DNA of 60,000 nt from Amphiscolops sp. MND2022 (Eukaryota). Numbering within the stretch: position 1 is the stretch's first letter; every line of letters starts with the position of its first letter. Shown here in pieces: positions 40,901-51,578 of the stretch. The notes beneath the pieces were generated by a model, which made no database searches, was not told the DNA's origin, and worked only from the letters and a program-made list of their open reading frames with translations. The stretch covers positions 26,104,001 through 26,164,000 of the forward strand of contig OZ076409.1 of the NCBI GenBank assembly GCA_964187785.1, in the 5' to 3' direction. The position numbers and the translations under genes were made by a program.

Positions 40901-42906
40901 ATGAAAAGGGCGGGCGGAGAGCAACTCTGTTATCTGCCAAAGCAAAAGTTGCCCCTTTAAAAGCACAGTCAATTCCTCGTTTAGAACTGTGTGCAGCACT
41001 GCTAGGTTGTAAGTTATTGAAAGCAGTCTCAGAAAGTCTGAGCAAACTGAGTTTACGCATTGAACGGTTTTACGCCTGGACGGACTCAACAATAGTGTTA
41101 AGCTGGCTGGCGGCTGAAGCCAACTGCTGGTCAACGTTTGTAGCCAACCGAGTTGCAAAAATTCAAGAAATTGACTTCCTGGAATGGAATCACGTAGGTA
41201 CGCATGACAACCCAGCTGACATTGCGTCAAGAGGTATTGATCCATCGAAGTTGAAAAACTGTTCCTTGTGGTGATCAGGCCCTCAGTGGCTGACTACAGA
41301 AAACTTTCCCGAACCGTTTTCGCCGCAAGGCACAAGTGAAGAAAAGAAACACTGCGCTAGGACAATTCGAACCCTTGCAACGCAATTTCAAGAACCAAAA
41401 GATCACAGCGGTGATGTAATCAACTTAAGTGAGCAAAATTCTTTCCGAAAAACGCTTCGGATAGTAGTCCAAATTAGGCGATTCATTGATAAGTGTAAAC
41501 GCAAGAAAACAAATTGTAGTAATTTTCCAACGCCAATCGAGATGCAAGAAGCTTTAGAAACCTTACTACGCCAGGAGGAGTACAAGTTTTTCTCTACTGA
41601 AATTAAAACACTTGAGACAGAGAGACAAGTAAAGCCGCAGAGCAAACTGAGTAAACTTTATCCGTTCCTGCATGAAGGTATTCTGTGTGTGGGTGGCCGG
41701 TTAGCTCAAGCTGACCTTCCAGGCGAAACTAAGTATCCAAGACTGATTCCTGAGAAGAGCGAGTTAGCCAGACTGGTCATCTTAGACGCTCATCACTCCA
41801 CTTTACACGGAGGAGCCACACAAACTATTGCGCAAATAAGAACTCGTTTCTGGATACCAGGTTGCAAAAATCAAGTGCGAAAATTGATTCTGAATTGCGT
41901 GACATGTTCGCGTTTTTTTGGTAACAAGGAGGAACAGCTAATGGGTGACTTACCAAAAGAACGAATAAGTATACCGACTAGAGCTTTTGAGGACGTAGGA
42001 TTAGATTTCGGTGGTCCTTTTTACTTAAAAGTGTCCGGATCGGAAAACAACAAGGCCTATCTAGTGTTATTTGTCTGCTTTGCAAGTAAGGCTATACATT
42101 TGGAGCTGGTGTCAGACCTAACAACAAATGCTTGTATTGCGGCACTACGACGTTTCACGTCACGAAGGGGTTGTGCTCGGAAAATGTACTCAGATAATGC
42201 CACAAACTTTACTGGTTCACAATCTGAACTTGGAAAGTTGTAGAAAATCTTAAACGCAAAATACCAAGATTCTCTGCAGGCAGCAGCGGCTGGCCTTTTA
42301 ATTGAATGGAATTTAATACCTCCTAATGCCCCTCATTTTGGAGGCTTTTGGGAGGCTGGTATAAAAAGCGCGAAACATCATTTAGGGCGCACAGTGGGAA
42401 ATCACGTCCTAACTTTTGAAGAACTGAAAACTTTATTTTGTCAGGTTGAGAGTATTTTAAATTCGTGTCCGATTGGTGTTCTTTCCGAAGATCCAAAAGA
42501 CGGTGAAATTTTAACACCTGCGCACTTAATATGCGGAACGAAACTCGAAACTTTCCCGACAATAGAAACTCCAAGGAAAAACGATCTTGCCAATTGTACG
42601 TCAACAGCTAGATGGGCGCATATTCAAAACGTGCTCTTACATTTCTGGAAGCGTTGGCACAAAGAATACGTGACATCATTACAGGAAAGGAAAAAGTGGG
42701 GAAAGGAAGTTACCAATTTGAAAGTTGGTGATGTTGTCTTCATCACAGACGACAATGTGGCGCCTCTACAGTGGCCGTTGGGACGCATCTCATATGTATA
42801 TAGTGGTCCTGACAATTTTGTGCGAGTTGTCAAAGTTCGAACGCAATCTGGCATCTACAACAGAGCTGTACACAAACTCAAAAAACTGCCTCTACCTTCT
42901 GACTAA
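37621..42906 (+). pseudogene. BEL/Pao gag-pol with a few stops and frameshifts
   Basis: Gag (LPSFTGSYTEW, three Cys/His knuckles), PR (ALLDSGSQ), RT (YYLPHH, KLRVVFDAS, ADVAKMYRQ, YVDD), RH (FCDASE, IPRLEL, WTDS), IN (LDFGGP, SDNATNF, GPDNFVRV). Confidence 0.95.
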
Positions 42907-42984: not shown

Positions 42985-43503
<519 letters not shown>

Positions 43504-43567
43504 GAAAGACTTAATTCCCTTTGTATTAAAAGGCATGTTCTAAAAGGCGGTATAAGTGAAAAAAATT

Positions 43568-45907
43568 TCAAGCACGACAGATGCTACAAGAGCACTTAAT
43601 AAACCAAGTGCAAGAACGATTTATATCAAAGGAAGACACTCGATTATGAAGGTAAACAGAAAGGTCCCTTCTGAAGCTGTTGAAGTTATCCAAGACAGAA
43701 ATATTGATTGCTGATAGGTAGTTAGAGTAGCAGCAGATTCTCTGGAAGTAAGATTCCTGGGTTTTGAATTTGTGACAGGGGTTTACTGGGGAAAGATGGA
43801 TGAATTTGGAGCTTCTGAGATCTTTAGCAGGATGGCTAAAAACATATAAAGTCTTTAATATTTAGGTCATATTTGCCATGGATGGTCTTATTAAGGAAAA
43901 GCATGTCTTGGAAAACAAGATAGAAAGAAATTGGAAGTGTGTATGTTGCAGCAAGTTGTTCAAGATAGTTTGATAAACCAGTAACCCATTTCAGGCACTT
44001 CATGTTGAATAATTCCAATTTACGTCTGTAAATCAATGAAGGGTACCATATTTGGGAACCATATAGCAAGACACTCAGTACACAAAGACGATAGTAAAGT
44101 AGCTTTGTACGGGTACAAACAATTCGAGGCAGGTTTCGTTTCAAAAACTGGAAAGACTTCCTAGCTGCAATTAATTTAGATTGAATGTGCTTGTCCCAGG
44201 ATAAGTTGTCAGAAACCATGATACCCAAGTCTTTGATAGTATTTACAACTGGTAGTTCGTTGCCATCCAGGAAGAACGGGCCCATTAATTCTCTATTTTT
44301 GAAGGAGATAACGTTGCATTTGTCAATATTGAATCTCATTAGGTTTTCGCCCGACCAGTAAAGAAAACCGTTTATATCGTGCTGCATATCAGAAGTTGTC
44401 AAGACTGAGTGAAGTTTACTGTCATCGGCAAACAAGTAACTCGAGGATGTTTGTACTGTTTTGGGTAGATCGGTAATAAAGATAAGAAATAGAAGGGGGC
44501 CGAGCACGCTCCCCTGAGGAACACCACTTGTAAATTTTGCAGAATCAGAAAGACACCCATTTATGTATACCTTTTGAGATCTTTGATTTAGATAGGATTT
44601 GAAAAGCACCAAGAAATCGGAGTCAAAATTGAAAGAAGCCAATTTCTGTAGGAGTTTGTGATGACAGACCAGGTCAAATGCTTTGGAAAAGTCAAAATAG
44701 ACTGAGAAGCTGGGTCCATTCACATCAAGTTGATGATACAATTGGTCAAGATAAGGGAGTAATTGCGTAACTGTTGAACGATTTTTTAAAAAACCATGTT
44801 GTTGATCACAAATCAATGGTCGTATTTGGGGATAAATGAAACGAAATATAATTTTTTCAAGAATTAAGGATAGTTGAGGCAAATTGCTAATTGGACGATA
44901 ATTTTCCACATTTTCGGGGTTACCAGATTTGAGAATTGGCTTTATGGTAGAACATTTCCAGAAATCAGGCCACTGTTTTGATTTGATAATGGTATTAAAA
45001 AGCTGGGTGACAAGAGGTGCTAGTAGCCCAGGACAGGAGTTGAAAACGAACGTGGGAATGGGATCAGAGCTCGAACAATTAGAGGATGCACTGGAAAGTA
45101 ATGTTTCAACCATCGAAATTTCGACTGTCATATCCTGCAGAAACACCAGTGGATTATCAGCTATTGGTAAGAATGTTGAGTTGCTTGTTTGGTATACAGA
45201 GCTGAAGTAGGAATTGAAGAGGTTAGCGATATGAATATTGGTGCTAGCTTTGATATGTTTCCAATGCATCTGGTTAGGTAAATGATTAAGAGAGAAAGAG
45301 CGCAGGTACTTGAAGCAAGAGCGAGTCGAATTGGGTGATAGAGAAGGAAGAAGCTGAATACTTTGATGTTGTTTGAGAACTTTGGTTGGACAAGGGCTTA
45401 GACTTTCATCCACACAAACCGTAAAAAGTTCTGGAGTTGAAGTCAATATGATATCGAGTATGCTTCCGGACTTGTAAGTTGGTTCGAAAACAAGTGGCAG
45501 GAGATTTAAACTTTCGACTTTTTCCAATATTGCTTTAGAGTAATCAGAGTGTGCAGTGATTGTTGCCCAACAGACGTCCACCAAGTTAATGTCACCAAGG
45601 ATTGTGAAAGAATTCGAAGATACAAGATCGTCGTTGAAGTATGAGGAAATGCAGTCTATTAGTGAATCTGCTTGAATACGGTATGGAGAATTTGTGGGCG
45701 GGTTATAAATCAGTAGAAACATGTGAGAGCTGTATTCGTCAAATAAGTAGATGGCAGTTGAGTAGTCGTTTAGCTTTGAAACTTCTGAATGATTGAATTG
45801 AAATCCTTTTTTGGTAGCTATCAAAACCCCACCATGTTCCCAAGTTAATCGATCTTTTCTGGAGATTGTTGTATAATTGCTTTTTAGTGGAAAAATTTCA
45901 GAATCGT
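43568..45907 (-). pseudogene. LINE A ORF2 (APE + RT), main part; N-terminus at 49901-50036
   Basis: GDIN, YRPISNL, FDFSKAFD, GVPQGSVLGP, LFADD. Internal deletions and a frameshift at ~43836; Cys-rich end CTWFIKCSCSICRA*. Confidence 0.92.
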
Positions 45908-45910
45908 TGA

Positions 45911-46060
<150 letters not shown>

Positions 46061-46130
46061 AAGACTTAATTCCAAGATTATGGAGTTATAAAATACGTAC
46101 ATGTTCTGAATAAAACGAAAAACCGAAAGA

Positions 46131-48974
46131 CTATGAGCGACAAAACGAACAGTAGCATTTTATAAACAGTGAACAGGAGTTCGAGATATCAAAGTTTGAG
46201 ATCTTTGATAGAAGAAAGTTACGTAGCACCAGTTTGAAATGTTGCAGCGACATACTGAAATCAAGCACTTTTAGACTAATGAGAGCATTTGCTGCTCTAG
46301 TGGATCTGACAAAGAAGTTGCTTTCAGAGCCAACTTTTTTGGTTTTTGGAACATCAAAAAGCCCCAGAGTGGATGATCTTGTGTTCAGGGTACTCGTGCC
46401 AAGATTGTGATCGACATCAAGACAGCGATTTTGCAGTTTCCATAGCAGTATGAGGTCGTTTTCCGCAAGCTGAAAACACAAGGGTAGATAGGAATGACTC
46501 AAAAGGGCTGACTTATAACTTTTATCAGAACAAATCCATTTAAAAGCCCGCATTTGAAACTTTTCTAATTTTTTGAGGTAAGTAACTGAAGGCGACCATA
46601 CAGGAGATCCATATAGAAGAACAGATACTACCAAAGAATGGTAAAGTAATTTCTTTCTGGGACTAGCGGTAGAAAAAGGGATATTTCGACGCATAAAGTT
46701 AAAAACTCTGGTGCATTTGGCGAGTTTCGTTTCAATATGGTTCGTCCAGTCGAGGTTGGATGTGACAGTAAACCCAAGGTCTTCAATGCTCTTTTCAAAT
46801 GGCAATTCATTTGGACGAAGATTCAGCATTAAATCAGGCATTACATCCGAGAATGGAATACATTTACATTTCGAGGGATGAAAACTCAGACCATTTAAAA
46901 CAGACCAATGTAGAAGAGCATCAAGATCGCTTTGCATGAGTTGGAGGATACAGTCAAAATGTACTTTTAAATCATCAGCAAAAGCAAATGGGCATCCTTG
47001 TTCAATAGATTCCATCATGTCGTTGATAAACAGAATGAATAACAATGGTCCCAAAACACTTCCCTGAGGAACACCTGAAGGTACAGCAACTGGAGACGAG
47101 AGACTTTCTCTTACTTTGACAATTTGAAACCTGTTCGAAAGATAAGATTCCATTAGTTTGATGAAACCAGGACATAAACCGAAAAGCTTGAGCTTGGATA
47201 ATAGCAAATGATGAGGGACTGAATCGAATGCCTTTTGCACATCAAAATAGATAGACAAAGTGGGAGTATTGGAGTCCATGGCACGATAGACAAGATCTAA
47301 ATATGATATCATTTGAGTTACAGTGCTCCGGGCTTTCATGAAACCGTGTTGTTTCCTGTGAATTAGCTTCAAAACTTTGGGGTACAAAAAGTTGAAAATA
47401 ATCCGCTCCAGAATGAGTGAGAGTTTGCAAAGAATACTGATTGGGCGATAATTATCAATGGAAGATTTCGGGCCTTTTTTATGTAGTGGTGTTATGTGCG
47501 ATACTTTCCAAACATCAGGCCAAGTTCGATTTTTAAGTATATGTGTGAATAGTTCCAAAACAAGTGGAGCCAGTATATTTGATGCCTTATGAAGAACAAA
47601 CGAAGGCACTTGATCAGGACCCATAGAATTTGAATCATCGCATTTCAGCAGAAGTGTTTCCACTTCAATAAGTGAGACTTGGAGATCATCAATAAAAATA
47701 GAGGGTACAGTTTCAGTTTCTGATGCTGCGACAAAGTCAACTTTTGAACTAAACACTGAACTAAGGTATTTGTTGAAGGCATTTGCAATATCAGTGTCAG
47801 TGCAGTATTTTTGGTCGTTGTAATACATAACAGAGGGAATATGATTGCAAAAACCCAATTTTCGGAGCATACGAAAGCACTCAGTTGAAGAAGATGAGTT
47901 GAAACTATCCAGAAAGACAAGTTTATCTAATTCGATCGATTGGGATAGTGATAGATCTATTTCACGTTGTTTGAGAGCTAATTGAAACGACCAGAATCTG
48001 GACATTTTGCGAATGTTTGTATCTTTTTGATTCAGAAGATGAATCGTATGGGAGGAGTAGTAGATGGGAAAATTCCGACGACGTTTTCTTTTTTGTCTAA
48101 TAGAAATGAATAAAGAAGAGGACAAACGTGAATACCATTCAGATACAAAGTCAAAGACAGTGGAGGGCTGCATGAAACAAATCAGATCAAATAGAGGAGA
48201 TAGAGATTGATTGAAAATTGACTTATCGAAAGACGACTGTGAGTAGGAAGGTACAATAGGTATTTCATTATTCGTGCACTCGAGTGAAAAATAAATAGGA
48301 TAATGATCGGAAAAAAGATTTAGGTCCACCCAACAGTCAAGGTTGCTAGAGTCAGTTAGAATAAGGTCGAGGATATTACCCGCTTTATGAGTAGGTGAAT
48401 CAATAAACTGCGACAGGCAGAGCTCATTTACAGCTTCGAGGAAGGATAGCTCTTTTTCATTACTACTTGTCATAGTGTCCCAGTCAATATCGGGGAAATT
48501 GAAGTCACCAAGAACAAACGTTGAAAAGTCCCATTTGGGGTTTCCAACTTTTTCCACAAGTGTTTTCTGATATGCATGTATACATTCAATAATTTGCGCA
48601 ACATCGACTTTGTAATCAGAGGTAGATGGAGGATTGTATATAAGGATGAAAAGTTTCAACTCAGTCTCCGAAAGACAACAGCCAACAGAAAAAGGATATT
48701 GTTTGAGTGAGATATCCACAAGGGTTGAGCCGCAATGGTTTGATACTGCTATTAATATGCCTCCGTGTTGACCCTGAGGCCTATCGGAACGTGAGATAAT
48801 GGTGTAAGAAGAACCAAGAAAAATTTCCGAGTCAGAAATATTCTCATCCAGCCATGTTTCAGTAAGAAATACGAGAAAGAATGAATTTAAAGATAAGAGT
48901 TTTGCAAGTTTATGACGTTTGGATAGACTAAGAGTTGATCTGCAGTTCAGCAAGAGGCATGTTTTTTTTGCCAG
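46131..48974 (-). CDS. LINE B ORF2: APE endonuclease + reverse transcriptase (no ATG start; in frame with ORF1)
   Basis: LNCRS, LTETWL, GDFN, SDH; YRPISIL, QHGF, FDVQKAFD, GVPQGSVLGP, FADD. Uninterrupted for more than 940 codons. Confidence 0.96.
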   Translation of the reverse strand: MAKKTCLLLNCRSTLSLSKRHKLAKLLSLNSFFLVFLTETWLDENISDSEIFLGSSYTIISRSDRPQGQHGGILIAVSNHCGSTLVDISLKQYPFSVGCCLSETELKLFILIYNPPSTSDYKVDVAQIIECIHAYQKTLVEKVGNPKWDFSTFVLGDFNFPDIDWDTMTSSNEKELSFLEAVNELCLSQFIDSPTHKAGNILDLILTDSSNLDCWVDLNLFSDHYPIYFSLECTNNEIPIVPSYSQSSFDKSIFNQSLSPLFDLICFMQPSTVFDFVSEWYSRLSSSLFISIRQKRKRRRNFPIYYSSHTIHLLNQKDTNIRKMSRFWSFQLALKQREIDLSLSQSIELDKLVFLDSFNSSSSTECFRMLRKLGFCNHIPSVMYYNDQKYCTDTDIANAFNKYLSSVFSSKVDFVAASETETVPSIFIDDLQVSLIEVETLLLKCDDSNSMGPDQVPSFVLHKASNILAPLVLELFTHILKNRTWPDVWKVSHITPLHKKGPKSSIDNYRPISILCKLSLILERIIFNFLYPKVLKLIHRKQHGFMKARSTVTQMISYLDLVYRAMDSNTPTLSIYFDVQKAFDSVPHHLLLSKLKLFGLCPGFIKLMESYLSNRFQIVKVRESLSSPVAVPSGVPQGSVLGPLLFILFINDMMESIEQGCPFAFADDLKVHFDCILQLMQSDLDALLHWSVLNGLSFHPSKCKCIPFSDVMPDLMLNLRPNELPFEKSIEDLGFTVTSNLDWTNHIETKLAKCTRVFNFMRRNIPFSTASPRKKLLYHSLVVSVLLYGSPVWSPSVTYLKKLEKFQMRAFKWICSDKSYKSALLSHSYLPLCFQLAENDLILLWKLQNRCLDVDHNLGTSTLNTRSSTLGLFDVPKTKKVGSESNFFVRSTRAANALISLKVLDFSMSLQHFKLVLRNFLLSKISNFDISNSCSLFIKCYCSFCRS

Positions 48975-49847
48975 TCATTTTGTATCCACGGTAACAGGAG
49001 CTCCCTTGTAGTAGAGCTTCAAGTTTTTAATCTTGAAGTCTTCCCTGGACTTCCCTTCCTTTATCATTGAATAACGTTTGGACAAAACCTCTTTCTCTAT
49101 TGCACGTTTTTGAGACGACAAAAACTTTTTGATGTAAACAGCATTTTGGTAACTCTGTAGATGATAACTACGGGCGAAGCATTGTTTTAGGAACAGTGGG
49201 TTTGAGGTTGTTATGAGTAAAGGACGACATGCTCGTTTCTCTTTATTTGCTGGGTCATGACTTCTGCCTAACCTACGAATTTCGGATACGTTGCCATCAC
49301 TAGAGAGTCCCATATGTTTAAGAATTTTGTTCACTTCATCCACATCTTTTTCAATTTGTTTCAAGTAACTATCTTCGGTTTCAGTAGAGCCTGTGATAAC
49401 AAATTGCATTTCCTTTTTTTCTTTAACAAAATTGCCACCAACAACATCACTATACGAAGGAATGGAATCAGCGACAGCTTTTGAAACATTTTCTTTGAGA
49501 AGTAGAGGAACGGTGTCTTTTATGGCTTTTGGAATAAGCTCAGATATTGACGTGTTTACTTTTGTGCTAAAAGAATTAAAAAGTGAATTCAACTTAGCTT
49601 CGGTTTTTGCTGATGCTCCAATTAAGCAATCTCCCTTGTCCAGGCAGGCGTCGCAGCACCACAAGCAGTTTCGCTGAGTCCCCAGCCACTTCACACTGTC
49701 GATTGAGAGCCCTACACAATCACCGTGGAACCAGGAATTGCAATACTCGCATCCGATGCCCGATGAGTCGTCGTCTTCAACTGTTTTTTTACAGGTCACA
49801 CATTTGGTTGATGATTTGGAGCACAATCTCGGTCTTCGATTTGCCAT
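48975..49847 (-). CDS. LINE B ORF1 with N-terminal PHD finger
   Basis: CVTC..CEYCNSWFHGDC..WCCDAC; RRLG..RPLLI motif typical of CR1/L2 ORF1. Confidence 0.93.
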   Translation of the reverse strand: MANRRPRLCSKSSTKCVTCKKTVEDDDSSGIGCEYCNSWFHGDCVGLSIDSVKWLGTQRNCLWCCDACLDKGDCLIGASAKTEAKLNSLFNSFSTKVNTSISELIPKAIKDTVPLLLKENVSKAVADSIPSYSDVVGGNFVKEKKEMQFVITGSTETEDSYLKQIEKDVDEVNKILKHMGLSSDGNVSEIRRLGRSHDPANKEKRACRPLLITTSNPLFLKQCFARSYHLQSYQNAVYIKKFLSSQKRAIEKEVLSKRYSMIKEGKSREDFKIKNLKLYYKGAPVTVDTK

Positions 49848-49861
49848 AACGATATATGAAA

Positions 49862-49900
49862 CTATTTAATTATTTAATAAGGTTATCACAACAATTAGGC
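49862..49900 (-). other. Spliced-leader-like 5' terminus of LINE B
   Basis: GCCTAATTGTTGTGATAACCTTATTAAATA(ATTAAATA)G begins at the first base after the TSD and is shared with LINE A. Confidence 0.6.
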
Positions 49901-50340
49901 TGATAGATGGATAGAGCCAAGTTTCAGTTAGAAAGATGATATCTGGGGAATGAAGACTGAGATAATTCAGAAGTTTGAGGCGTTGCGAAACATCGATAAG
50001 GCTTTGGACATTGATAAGGCAAGATTTGATTTGCAGTCAATTTTGCAAGTTGACCTCAACACCATTTCTCATAAGTTTTAGACCTTTGATTCGCAATTCT
50101 TCTTTGGGGACGTTTTCATTGTTAATCATTTGATATCTTTTTTCTAACAGTTTACGTCTCGTTGCTTGGTCTTCCTTATTTAGCGATTTAGAAAAGTAGA
50201 GTTGCACAGGGTATGATTTCAGTTTGTAAGCTTTCGATAAACTTTTGCGAGCATCCCGTTCAGAGGTAAAACGTACAAGCAGGGGCCTGGGTCTTTTTGA
50301 ATCACGCTGAGGACGTCCAAGCCGACGGGTTGTTTCAATG

Positions 50341-50690
50341 GGGTGGCTGTAAATAGGTCGAATTTTTCTGGTCGAAAAGACTGAGGTCGAACCTTTTGAT
50401 CGAATTACAGGGATCGAATGGAATGCGGTCGAATTTTATCGTATTTGTTGTATGGCTCGGTCGCTTTGCTCCCTTCGCCAAGTAGCAACATTGAGGCATG
50501 GCCATATGGCACGTCGCTCCGCTTCGCTTCGCTCCTGCATTCAGGGCACTAGGGGTATCTGAACATATCTGACTACGTTATAAAAATTTCGATCCGAGTT
50601 GTTTCGATCCCATTCAAAAATTTGGTATTGTCGACCTGAGGACTAACTCTGATTTTCGATCCCGTTCCTTCGGCCTATTTCCGCCCACCC
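50341..50690. mobile_element. ~350-bp MITE, copy 2
   Basis: TIRs GGGTGGCTGTAAATAGG / CCTATTTCCGCCCACCC; perfect TSD GTTTCAATG. Confidence 0.95.
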
Positions 50691-51167
50691 GTTTCAATGG
50701 ATAACATGGGTTCACCAATATGTTGGAAGACCTCCTTCAACTTAAAGTCATCGGCTTCAAAAGAGGAATGAAAGTCACCCTTATCCTCAACAAGTCCACT
50801 TATTAGAATCTCACGACAAGTGGTTTCTCCACTAGGGGGAGCTTTTGGCACTTTATGGGTAGGTTCAAGTTTTGTTTTAATTTCATCAAGAGAATTTTGA
50901 ATTGATTTAACCGAGATTTTAAATTCTTTCTCAGCAATCAAAGAATTCAACTTAGCTTCGGATGTGAAAACATCATCGTTGTGGCAAACACTACAGATCC
51001 AGAGACACCCTCTGATTCTGCCCATCACAGTGACATCATCTTGAGAGAGACCAGCACATGAGCAGCCATGATACCAAACACCACAAGAGTCACAAGCAAT
51101 GCCAGACGGGTCCTCATCCTTCACCATTTTCTTGCAGGATCCACACTTGGATGCCGACGTAGATGTT

Positions 51168-51518
51168 GGGTGGCTGTAAATAGGTCGAATTTTTCTGGTC
51201 GAAAGGACAGAGGTCGAACCTTTTGATCGAATTGCAGAGATCGAATGGAATGCGGTCGAATTTTATCGTATTTGTTGTATGGCTCGGTCGCTTCGCTCCC
51301 TTCGCCAAGTAGCAACATTGAGGCATGGCCATAATGGCACGTCGCTCCGCTTCGCTTCGCTCCTGCATTTAGGGCACTAGGGGTATGTGAACATATCTGA
51401 CTACGTTATAAAAATTTCGATCCGAGTTGTTTCGATCCCATTCAAAAATCAGAGTATGTCGACCTGAGGACTAACTCTGATTTTCGATCCCGTTACTTCG
51501 ACCTATTTCCGCCCACCC
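51168..51518. mobile_element. ~350-bp MITE, copy 3
   Basis: Same TIRs; perfect TSD GTAGATGTT. Confidence 0.95.
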
Positions 51519-51549
51519 GTAGATGTTTTGTTTGTCATTTCACCGGAAA

Positions 51550-51576
51550 CTATTTAATAAGTTTATCACAACAATT
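51550..51576 (-). other. Spliced-leader-like 5' terminus of LINE A
   Basis: AATTGTTGTGATAAACTTATTAAATAG, 2 nt from the TSD and 11 nt before the ORF1 ATG. Confidence 0.6.
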
Positions 51577-51578
51577 TC

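Follow-up and report, generated by a model that had tools for sequence, protein, structure and literature searches.

Two long interspersed nuclear elements (LINEs), LINE A and LINE B, were found one inside the other in a 60,000-nucleotide (nt) stretch of DNA from Amphiscolops sp. MND2022 (assembly GCA_964187785.1, contig OZ076409.1, positions 26,104,001 to 26,164,000; hereafter the window), and both begin with a DNA copy of the spliced leader (SL) of their host. The explanation which accounts best for the observations overall, and which we consider highly probable, is that LINE RNA carries the host SL and that reverse transcription writes this leader into new copies. Mobilisation through SL-trans-spliced RNA is well supported by the sequence comparisons given below and proves to be usual for many LINE families throughout the genome.

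The initial annotation of the window had placed a leader-like block at the start of each LINE, 14 and 11 nt before the ATG of the first open reading frame (ORF1), and both the coordinates and the gaps were confirmed. On the minus strand, LINE B has the block GCCTAATTGTTGTGATAACCTTATTAAATAATTAAATAG at 49900-49862, then TTTCATATATCGTT and the ORF1 ATG at 49847, and LINE A has AATTGTTGTGATAAACTTATTAAATAG at 51576-51550, then TTTCCGGTGAA and an ATG at 51538. A 26-mer pattern allowing up to 3 mismatches matched the window at exactly these 2 sites, and none of 100 shuffles contained any match. The blocks stand where they were placed but the element starts required adjustment: the A at 49901 preceding the LINE B block is probably also part of the leader, one base more than was annotated, and the LINE A block is the leader without its first 5 nt, a small 5' truncation. 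The two ORF1/ORF2 sets had been described as different families and this held, with 43% protein identity between them in ORF2 and 29% in ORF1, values that separate the two LINEs as families within one clade. ORF2 of LINE A contains RVT_1 (E 1.8e-26) and Exo_endo_phos_2 domains, and the N-terminus of LINE B ORF2 aligns to that of LINE A. By domain content both are non-long-terminal-repeat retrotransposons of the apurinic-endonuclease type. A PHD-type ORF1 is known from the CR1/L2 group.

The annotation had suggested searching the genome for an SL RNA gene, and such genes were found in large numbers. The leader 26-mer with up to 2 mismatches gave 2622 matches in the species' own 1.07-Gb assembly and 0 for a reversed control. 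At least 1206 SL RNA genes are present, counted as 1206 exact sites of leader plus GTAAGT genome-wide, mostly 904 bp apart, at 16.2-16.4 Mb of C1. The 904-bp tandem unit consists, in order, of the leader exon ttttaGCCTAATTGTTGTGATAAACTTATTAAATAG with a GTAAGT splice donor directly behind it (AAATAG/GTAAGT, the slash marking the junction here and below), a GC-rich stem-loop, the Sm site in AATTTTTGA and a 5S rRNA gene (117.5 bits). In the predicted fold of the SL RNA (minimum free energy -29 kcal/mol, z = -3.2) the 3' half of the exon pairs with the intron (stem I), there is a second hairpin (stem II), and the Sm site AAUUUUUGA is single-stranded after the stem GCAGACUGCGAAAGUGGUCUGC. An Rfam scan of the array unit returned only 5S rRNA and no match to an SL RNA family. 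The annotation had mentioned a similar leader from an acoel, and rightly so: in the accessible text of the Symsagittifera roscoffensis genome paper, 10,433 genes (30.2% of all genes) receive the leader GCCTAATTGTTGTGATAAACTTATTAAATAGA by trans-splicing (PMC9911081), and this is the same leader. LINEs carrying the leader are not mentioned in the accessible text of that paper or of its supplement (PMC9911081). Because the block is identical both to the exon of the SL RNA gene and to the published acoel SL, the block heading the window LINEs is, on this identity, the host's true spliced leader. The annotation had allowed for the leader being absent from host mRNAs and for there being no SL RNA gene; instead, SL RNA genes are present and the identical leader is published on acoel mRNAs.

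The LINEs also bear on the length of the leader. An A lies directly before GCCT in 25 of the 27 sampled loci that keep GCCT, as it does in the SL RNA gene, and in 19 of 30 insertion junctions of the L043 family described below (L062-L091). Since insertion junctions and SL RNA gene agree, the leader is probably 32 nt long (AGCCUAAUUGUUGUGAUAAACUUAUUAAAUAG) with A as its first base, and would exceed the published sequence by this one 5' base. The insertion junctions would thus map the true first base of the SL RNA.

Some further features of the SL RNA gene arrays were seen. In part of the SL-5S array (L012-L031, C1:16.23-16.40 Mb) the 904-bp units alternate with ∼2-kb spacers at a spacing of 2904 bp, and these spacers contain an open frame of at least 369 amino acids (aa) with no Pfam match. 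Other SL arrays lie at 56.1-56.7 Mb of C12, 4.99 Mb of C2 and 15.4 Mb of C1.

Exact leader 27-mers followed by a base other than G number 534 and, because of that base, lie outside the SL RNA genes. Of the first 100 listed, 70 have T as the next base, while C and A each follow the leader in 15. The first 30 of the 534 loci (L032-L061) were examined in detail, which gives, for this sample, the tabulation of following sequence that the annotation had called for. All of their flanks differ and their downstream sequences form ∼18 clusters; Pfam matches or homology identify 26 of them as LINEs, one holds a copy of eIF2A without introns and 3 are unclassified. The 26 LINE loci span ∼18 families belonging to several deep groups. 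Every sampled locus with T after the leader continues TTTC (19/19; TTTCCGG in 11, TTTCAGA in 8), in most cases with an ATG 8-15 nt further on, and these loci fall in LINE groups without detectable mutual similarity over the first 1.5 kb. The motif TTTCCGGT in the 5' untranslated region (UTR) is common to 11 of the 30 loci. In the eIF2A copy (L046, C1:22.78 Mb) the 5' end of the leader is partly duplicated, and 8 nt separate the leader from an ATG with a frameshifted reading frame that lacks introns (Pfam eIF2A, E 2.4e-51). From this structure, it is a host mRNA which was retro-copied together with its spliced leader, and it lends indirect support to the presence of the leader on host mRNAs in this genome. 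An 'esterase-type' label for ORF1 of L038 and L058 was dropped as neither had a Pfam match.

Two side observations concern these SL-headed 5' ends. The same upstream flank recurs 1.2-11 kb apart at several of them (L039/L040, L054/L055, L081/L082, and the pairs at C2:87.578/87.583 Mb, C6:20.461/20.472 Mb and C3:37.818/37.823 Mb), and either flank and element were duplicated together in tandem at these places or the pairs arose in the assembly. In three SL-headed LINE families the 3' half of the leader is complemented by a UTR segment just behind it, giving a 14-20 bp hairpin which encloses the leader/UTR junction (L032:1457-1533, minus strand, z = -3.5; L038:1496-1575, plus strand, z = -6.8; L058:1496-1585, plus strand, z = -3.2). 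No such hairpin was predicted in the families of the window LINEs (z about 0). In the folding model the anti-leader segment may mimic stem I of the SL RNA or may tether an incoming SL RNA near the acceptor.

LINEs which insert into SL RNA genes by means of a restriction-like endonuclease, and use the promoter of the gene, are known from trypanosomatids (SLACS, CZAR, CRE1/2) and nematodes (NeSL-1). They have in common with the acoel LINEs, as far as the sequence of the latter tells, that the spliced-leader system is exploited for expression, and in both cases there is a physical link between LINE and SL sequence. In addition, 2-kb inserts containing an ORF do occur in some of the SL-5S array. 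However, the window lies 10 Mb from the array, LINE B lies within ORF2 of LINE A, and the sampled upstream flanks are unique, unlike the region upstream of the SL genes. The leader is followed by LINE UTR and not by GTAAGT or SL intron, and 5S is absent beside the copies. Given that the flanks are unique and unrelated, site-specific insertion into SL RNA genes with borrowing of their promoter is refuted for these copies, and we attach a negligible probability to it. In contrast to the SLACS, CZAR, CRE and NeSL-1 elements, the acoel LINEs are dispersed, are of the apurinic-endonuclease type and have only the SL exon, fused to their UTR.

Searches which did not select for the leader gave the same picture in two families. 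The first 300 nt behind the leader of L043, a member of a very young family, found at least 40 copies at 100% identity, of which 30 were examined. The leader was at the start of the element in 30/30, with at least 22 nt of the leader end in each; 19 of the 30 start AGCCTAATTG, the others miss or vary a few 5' bases, and every flank is unique. For the LINE A family, a pattern exposing the 21 nt before TTTCCGGTGAAATG gave 39 matches, 26 with the leader (19 canonical) and 13 without. The 13 leaderless matches are at background level (a reversed control gave 19) and include an unrelated repeat, so that a leaderless, longer 5' form of LINE A could be ruled out; the two matches reading CCAGAAAAAG/TTTCCGGTGAAATGG belong to that repeat. 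Nor was an alternative 5' extension seen among the 26 SL-bearing copies of the LINE A family. As no leaderless version with a longer 5' end exists in either the L043 or the LINE A family, the SL-headed form is, on this evidence, the full-length form of these elements. The LINE B family, with at least 40 dispersed copies, is more complicated and is considered below. With SL-headed LINEs genome-wide, 30/30 copies in the L043 family and 26 SL-bearing copies in the LINE A family, the suggestion of the initial annotation that the window LINEs mobilise through SL-trans-spliced RNA is well supported. As a separate observation, the unrelated repeat (L114, C2:56.10 Mb; L115, C3:17.64 Mb) matches the junction of leader end and UTR of LINE A at 20/21 bases in CCAGAAAAAG/TTTCCGGTGAAATGG and does not match it elsewhere.

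The position of the junction is that expected of splicing to the SL exon. In the sampled loci and in the L043 and LINE A families every junction coincides with the final G of the exon, and none is followed by sequence of the SL intron. A family containing ATTAACTG is present in two forms: a long form, SL plus CTGCGGCTGTTTAATAAGTCTTTTCAG plus ATTAACTG, in 27 copies, and a short form, SL/ATTAACTG, in 5 copies, which represent 4 independent loci, besides one copy that has decayed. The short form joins the leader at a canonical acceptor, TCTTTTCAG/, which is internal to the long form. Since the leader of the short form sits at an acceptor inside the long form, the transcript of an SL-headed copy has, judging by these junctions, been trans-spliced again further downstream and then retrotransposed. 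No leaderless precursor was found among the genomic copies of the LINE A and LINE B families, and therefore the acceptor for these two would be the relic of the leader itself.

A cycle can be proposed in which the element RNA would bear the host 32-nt leader at its 5' end and full-length reverse transcription would write it into the new DNA copy, directly before the 11-14 nt remnant UTR and ORF1. Integrated copies would be transcribed within longer host or read-through transcripts, where the relic with its terminal AG (UUAUUAAAUAG/UUUC) would act as a trans-splice acceptor and a fresh leader would replace the old one. The outcome would be a precise, capped mRNA with a short UTR, made without an element-borne promoter, as for a downstream gene of an operon. 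We lean slightly towards this part of the explanation, namely that the AG of the relic is re-used as acceptor and that integrated copies are expressed by read-through and need no promoter of their own. In its favour, the UTR proper to the window LINEs amounts to no more than 11-14 nt, and the leader is base-for-base identical to that of today's SL genes, with the same SL/TTTC junction, in families whose ORF2 is only 43% identical. Single copies with a variant leader also occur within otherwise canonical families. Counting positions back from the end of the leader, these are -8A and -10A in the LINE A family, -8C and -10A in the LINE B family and -10A in the ATTAACTG family, and among the SL RNA genes -8A is found in 12 genes, -8C in 1 and -10A in 1. 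The presence of one SL variant in three unrelated families would most simply mean that the leader was donated afresh at the same junction. More tentatively, and to our minds with somewhat less chance of being correct than of being wrong, the leader relic and the conserved TTTC(C/A)G could together form a cassette with which the element carries a trans-splice acceptor to new sites. LINEs of several clades could then do without a promoter: they would be cut from any host read-through transcript as mRNAs with a precise cap and a short UTR, like downstream operon genes that move, and have their 5' end rebuilt by the host in each cycle, the anti-leader UTR segment (14-20 bp) of some families steering the reaction by pairing with the leader or with the incoming SL RNA.

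A number of findings weigh against this cycle, some of them from leaders and UTRs across families and the rest from the LINE B family. At position -10 the relics of TTTC(C/A)G families carry A in 5, C in 4 and G in 3 cases, a -8G relic has no matching SL gene, and SL variants are far commoner on LINEs than among SL genes. The shared variants may therefore reflect recurrent mutation or a hot spot for reverse transcriptase (RT) error and not donation by variant SL RNA. The 8-12 nt after the leader (TTTCCGGT(TGTG)ATG) are perfectly conserved between families with ∼26-30% ORF1 identity, which indicates that selection alone can hold a short 5' sequence constant, and the constancy of the leader is thus no proof of its renewal. 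Perfect regeneration at the AG of the relic would, by design, leave no trace in the DNA.

In an alternative, trans-splicing brought the leader to the elements a single time or on few occasions, and the leader has since been a part of the element like any other, inherited as DNA and kept by selection, with a downstream internal promoter starting transcription at base 1 of the relic. Human L1 and Drosophila jockey have internal promoters which fix the first base in this way, and the complement ACCGGAAA of the conserved TTTCCGGT resembles what we take to be an ETS-type site, a candidate for such a promoter. Copies of the young family all start at or near base 1 of the leader whatever their flank, as they would if the start were fixed from inside, and the UTR motif behind the leader is as conserved as the leader across distant families. 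A further precedent for a fixed first base is Pr77 of the L1Tc/ingi elements, described in the accessible parts of the reports as a 77-nt promoter giving unspliced transcripts (PMC1874656, PMC8190864). Pr77 in those reports and the acoel leader are both short 5'-terminal modules which recur across retroelement families and define the 5' end of the RNA; the acoel module differs in being the host leader itself plus 11-14 nt, with any promoter role only putative. An internal promoter does not readily explain why families whose ORF2 is 43% identical still match the present SL gene in all 32 nt, or why single -8A, -8C or -10A leaders appear inside canonical families. Moreover, the SL/ATTAACTG form shows element transcripts being trans-spliced downstream of an existing relic, and only 11-14 nt of UTR are available to hold a promoter, although ORF1 could house one. 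On balance we judge this alternative unlikely, with a chance of perhaps one in a few.

The LINE B family was examined with a pattern exposing the 21 nt before TTTCATATATCGTT, which gave 50 matches; 8 were unrelated or unclear and 42 were counted. A full leader is present in 15 of the 42, of which 11 are canonical, 3 are changed at -8 or -10 and 1 is the window copy with its duplication. The other 27 begin inside the leader, between -5 and -11: 18 at ATTAAATAG (-9), 5 at -8, 1 at -11, 1 at -5 and 2 with duplicated 5' ends. AC lies just before 6 of the -9 starts, and one copy reads AGCCTAA-C-ATTAAATAG, which is the leader with its middle missing. Full-leader and short-start copies are intermixed among copies identical over the next 300 nt, hence the two 5' classes arise side by side. 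Of the full leaders, 4/15 are defective exactly at -8 to -10. Starts at -9 are rare elsewhere, with 12 matches over all TTTC(C/A)G families, and were not found in 30 L043-family or 26 LINE A-family copies. It would appear that LINE B makes, or its RT leaves, a second 5' end which does not need the whole leader, and in this the family departs from the proposed cycle in its pure form. The short ends suggest an element-directed start site, an RT block within the leader, or a template switch between an RNA starting at -9 and an SL-bearing RNA. The first of these would suit an internal promoter, since the discrete -9 ends look like a start site set by the element; the defects at -8 to -10 and the duplication in the window copy fit an RT block and template switching.

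Template switching can be taken further, to supply the leader in general: the RT would switch from the 5' end of the LINE RNA to an SL-bearing RNA while the DNA copy is made, aided in LINE B by the 9-nt overlap ATTAAATAG. The U6-L1 chimeric retrocopies of mammals provide a precedent. The many LINE B copies starting at ATTAAATAG, the full leaders defective just there (-8G, -8C, -10A and the window duplication), the duplicated 5' ends of other copies and the AGCCTAA-C-ATTAAATAG copy would all be accounted for. The other families argue otherwise, as leaders in 30/30 L043 and 26/26 LINE A copies without a -9 class would need near-perfect switching. The junction is never with the SL RNA intron and the leader is never found at varied positions in the element save the canonical acceptor, and for the eIF2A retrocopy it is enough that a host mRNA was trans-spliced in the usual way. 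As a general source of the leader, addition by template switching therefore seems to us improbable, and an SL already present on the LINE RNA is preferred.

Two other explanations of the LINE B ends were considered and set aside. The C variant of the window LINE B leader occurs at only 2 sites genome-wide and both are outside SL genes, so that a C-variant SL RNA gene was not its source. A branch-point origin of the -9 ends, with A(-9) in CUUAU, is unlikely because this A is too near the AG and because one would not expect splicing intermediates to be retrotransposed. The A/C variant and the 8-nt duplication, which the initial annotation had proposed as a means of telling the genomic leader from a trans-spliced one, are private to the window copy of LINE B and can be used as a tag for the locus.

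A close parallel is found in dinoflagellates, for which Slamovits and Keeling reportedly described, in 2008, 'recycled' retrogenes with DNA-encoded spliced-leader relics. As in the acoel LINEs, reverse-transcribed trans-spliced RNA integrates and the copy is recognisable by a host leader at its 5' end, and the dinoflagellate copy can be trans-spliced again. The carriers there are host genes, whereas here they are autonomous animal LINE families. In the dinoflagellates each new acceptor is located within the previous leader, which leaves the relics truncated and stacked; in the acoel a whole single leader is the rule, with the junction at the last AG of the relic, no search having been made for stacked leaders (SL directly before CCTAATTG). 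SL relics in retro-copied host genes are well known in dinoflagellates (PMC6050394, PMC5585692, PMC12014239). For parasitic flatworms, SL-like loci tied to LTR (long terminal repeat) and LINE elements have been reported, and the authors suggest that trans-spliced retrotransposon transcripts were integrated (PMC12582326). This is the same idea as that proposed here, an SL gained by trans-splicing followed by integration, and our literature searches turned up no other publication in which it is stated (PMC12582326). It is, however, a passing remark on 597 discarded loci with partial leaders in another phylum, and the accessible text contains no family-level analysis, conserved junction or proposal for regeneration of the 5' end (PMC12582326). 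In the literature that our search covered, neither animal LINE families with the leader at the start of the full-length form nor a relic serving as its own acceptor had been described. The mRNA of a nematode DNA transposon may be spliced to SL2, but a literature search on Tc3 and SL2 gave no result. Operons resolved by SL trans-splicing are described for nematodes, tunicates, flatworms and chaetognaths in the accessible part of a report on the subject (PMC12460157). Their downstream genes resemble the proposed LINE cycle in being promoterless coding units cut from a longer transcript by SL trans-splicing at a 5' acceptor. They are host genes at fixed positions, whereas the LINE would carry its own acceptor to any transcribed site.

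How different lineages of LINE keep a functional 5' end is a long-standing theme in transposon biology, as LINEs easily lose their 5' ends and must carry a promoter inside their own transcript. Here many LINE families of a bilaterian animal, drawn from several deep groups, start with the host spliced leader and possess hardly any 5' UTR besides. If the relic is re-spliced, this would be a new strategy in which host trans-splicing defines, caps and repairs the 5' end of the element, and any transcribed site would be a launch pad. Spliced-leader trans-splicing would then carry a cost, that of feeding retrotransposons, and the origin of host mRNA retrocopies in such genomes would be explained.

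The layout of the two LINEs is given in Table 1. LINE A extends from 51576 to about 43384 and LINE B from 49900/49901 to about 45911, LINE B being nested in the first codons of LINE A ORF2 in the same orientation. The target-site duplication of LINE B runs into the tail, so that its extent is ambiguous, from TCA to CTATCA; the short, ambiguous duplications at the window LINEs are CTATCA and AAGGG.

Table 1. Features of LINE A and LINE B in the window. ORF, open reading frame; UTR, untranslated region; RT, reverse transcriptase; MITE, miniature inverted-repeat transposable element.
Feature	Position	Strand	Remark
LINE B 5' end, host spliced leader as DNA copy (A+GCCT...AAATAG), with private A-to-C change and 8-nt duplication (ATTAAATA)	49862..49901	(-)	canonical leader taken from SL RNA gene
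LINE B residual 5' UTR TTTCATATATCGTT, 14 nt, leader to ORF1 ATG	49848..49861	(-)	junction AAATAG/TTTCATAT common to 42 family copies
LINE B ORF1, 290 aa, open, PHD finger	48975..49847	(-)	Pfam PHD, E 1.9e-05
LINE B ORF2, 947 codons, endonuclease and RT	46131..48974	(-)	RVT_1, E 1e-30; endonuclease part aligns to LINE A
LINE B 3' UTR ending GGAATTAAGTCTTC, then (TAC)n tail (about 45911-46059)	45911..46130	(-)	
LINE A 5' end, last 27 nt of host spliced leader, first 5 nt missing	51550..51576	(-)	
LINE A residual 5' UTR TTTCCGGTGAA, 11 nt, ORF1 ATG at 51538	51539..51549	(-)	
LINE A ORF1, PHD type, broken by two MITE insertions (51168-51520, 50341-50692)	50037..51538	(-)	
LINE A ORF2, endonuclease and RT, split by LINE B at 45911-49900, resumes 45910-43836	43384..50036	(-)	
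LINE A 3' UTR ending GGAATTAAGTCTTTC, then (AGT)n tail to about 43384		(-)	

Several smaller features of the window were also recorded. Both LINEs close with a near-identical 3' motif, GGAATTAAGTCTT(T)C (43504-43518 and 46060-46073, minus strand), followed by different triplet tails. In both, ORF2 lies in frame behind ORF1 with a single stop between them and no early ATG (48975-48977 and 50037-50039, minus strand), which suggests read-through of the stop or re-initiation. The insertions in LINE A ORF1 belong to one ∼352-bp element, and the two copies agree at 95-97%. Its terminal inverted repeats are GGGTGG(C/G)..., a 9-bp duplication flanks each copy (CATTGAAAC; ACATCTACG), and this element looks like a MITE. 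Adjoining the 3' end of LINE A, at 41275-42906 on the plus strand, is part of an LTR-type retroelement whose open frames contain an integrase zinc-binding domain, an integrase core and DUF5641.

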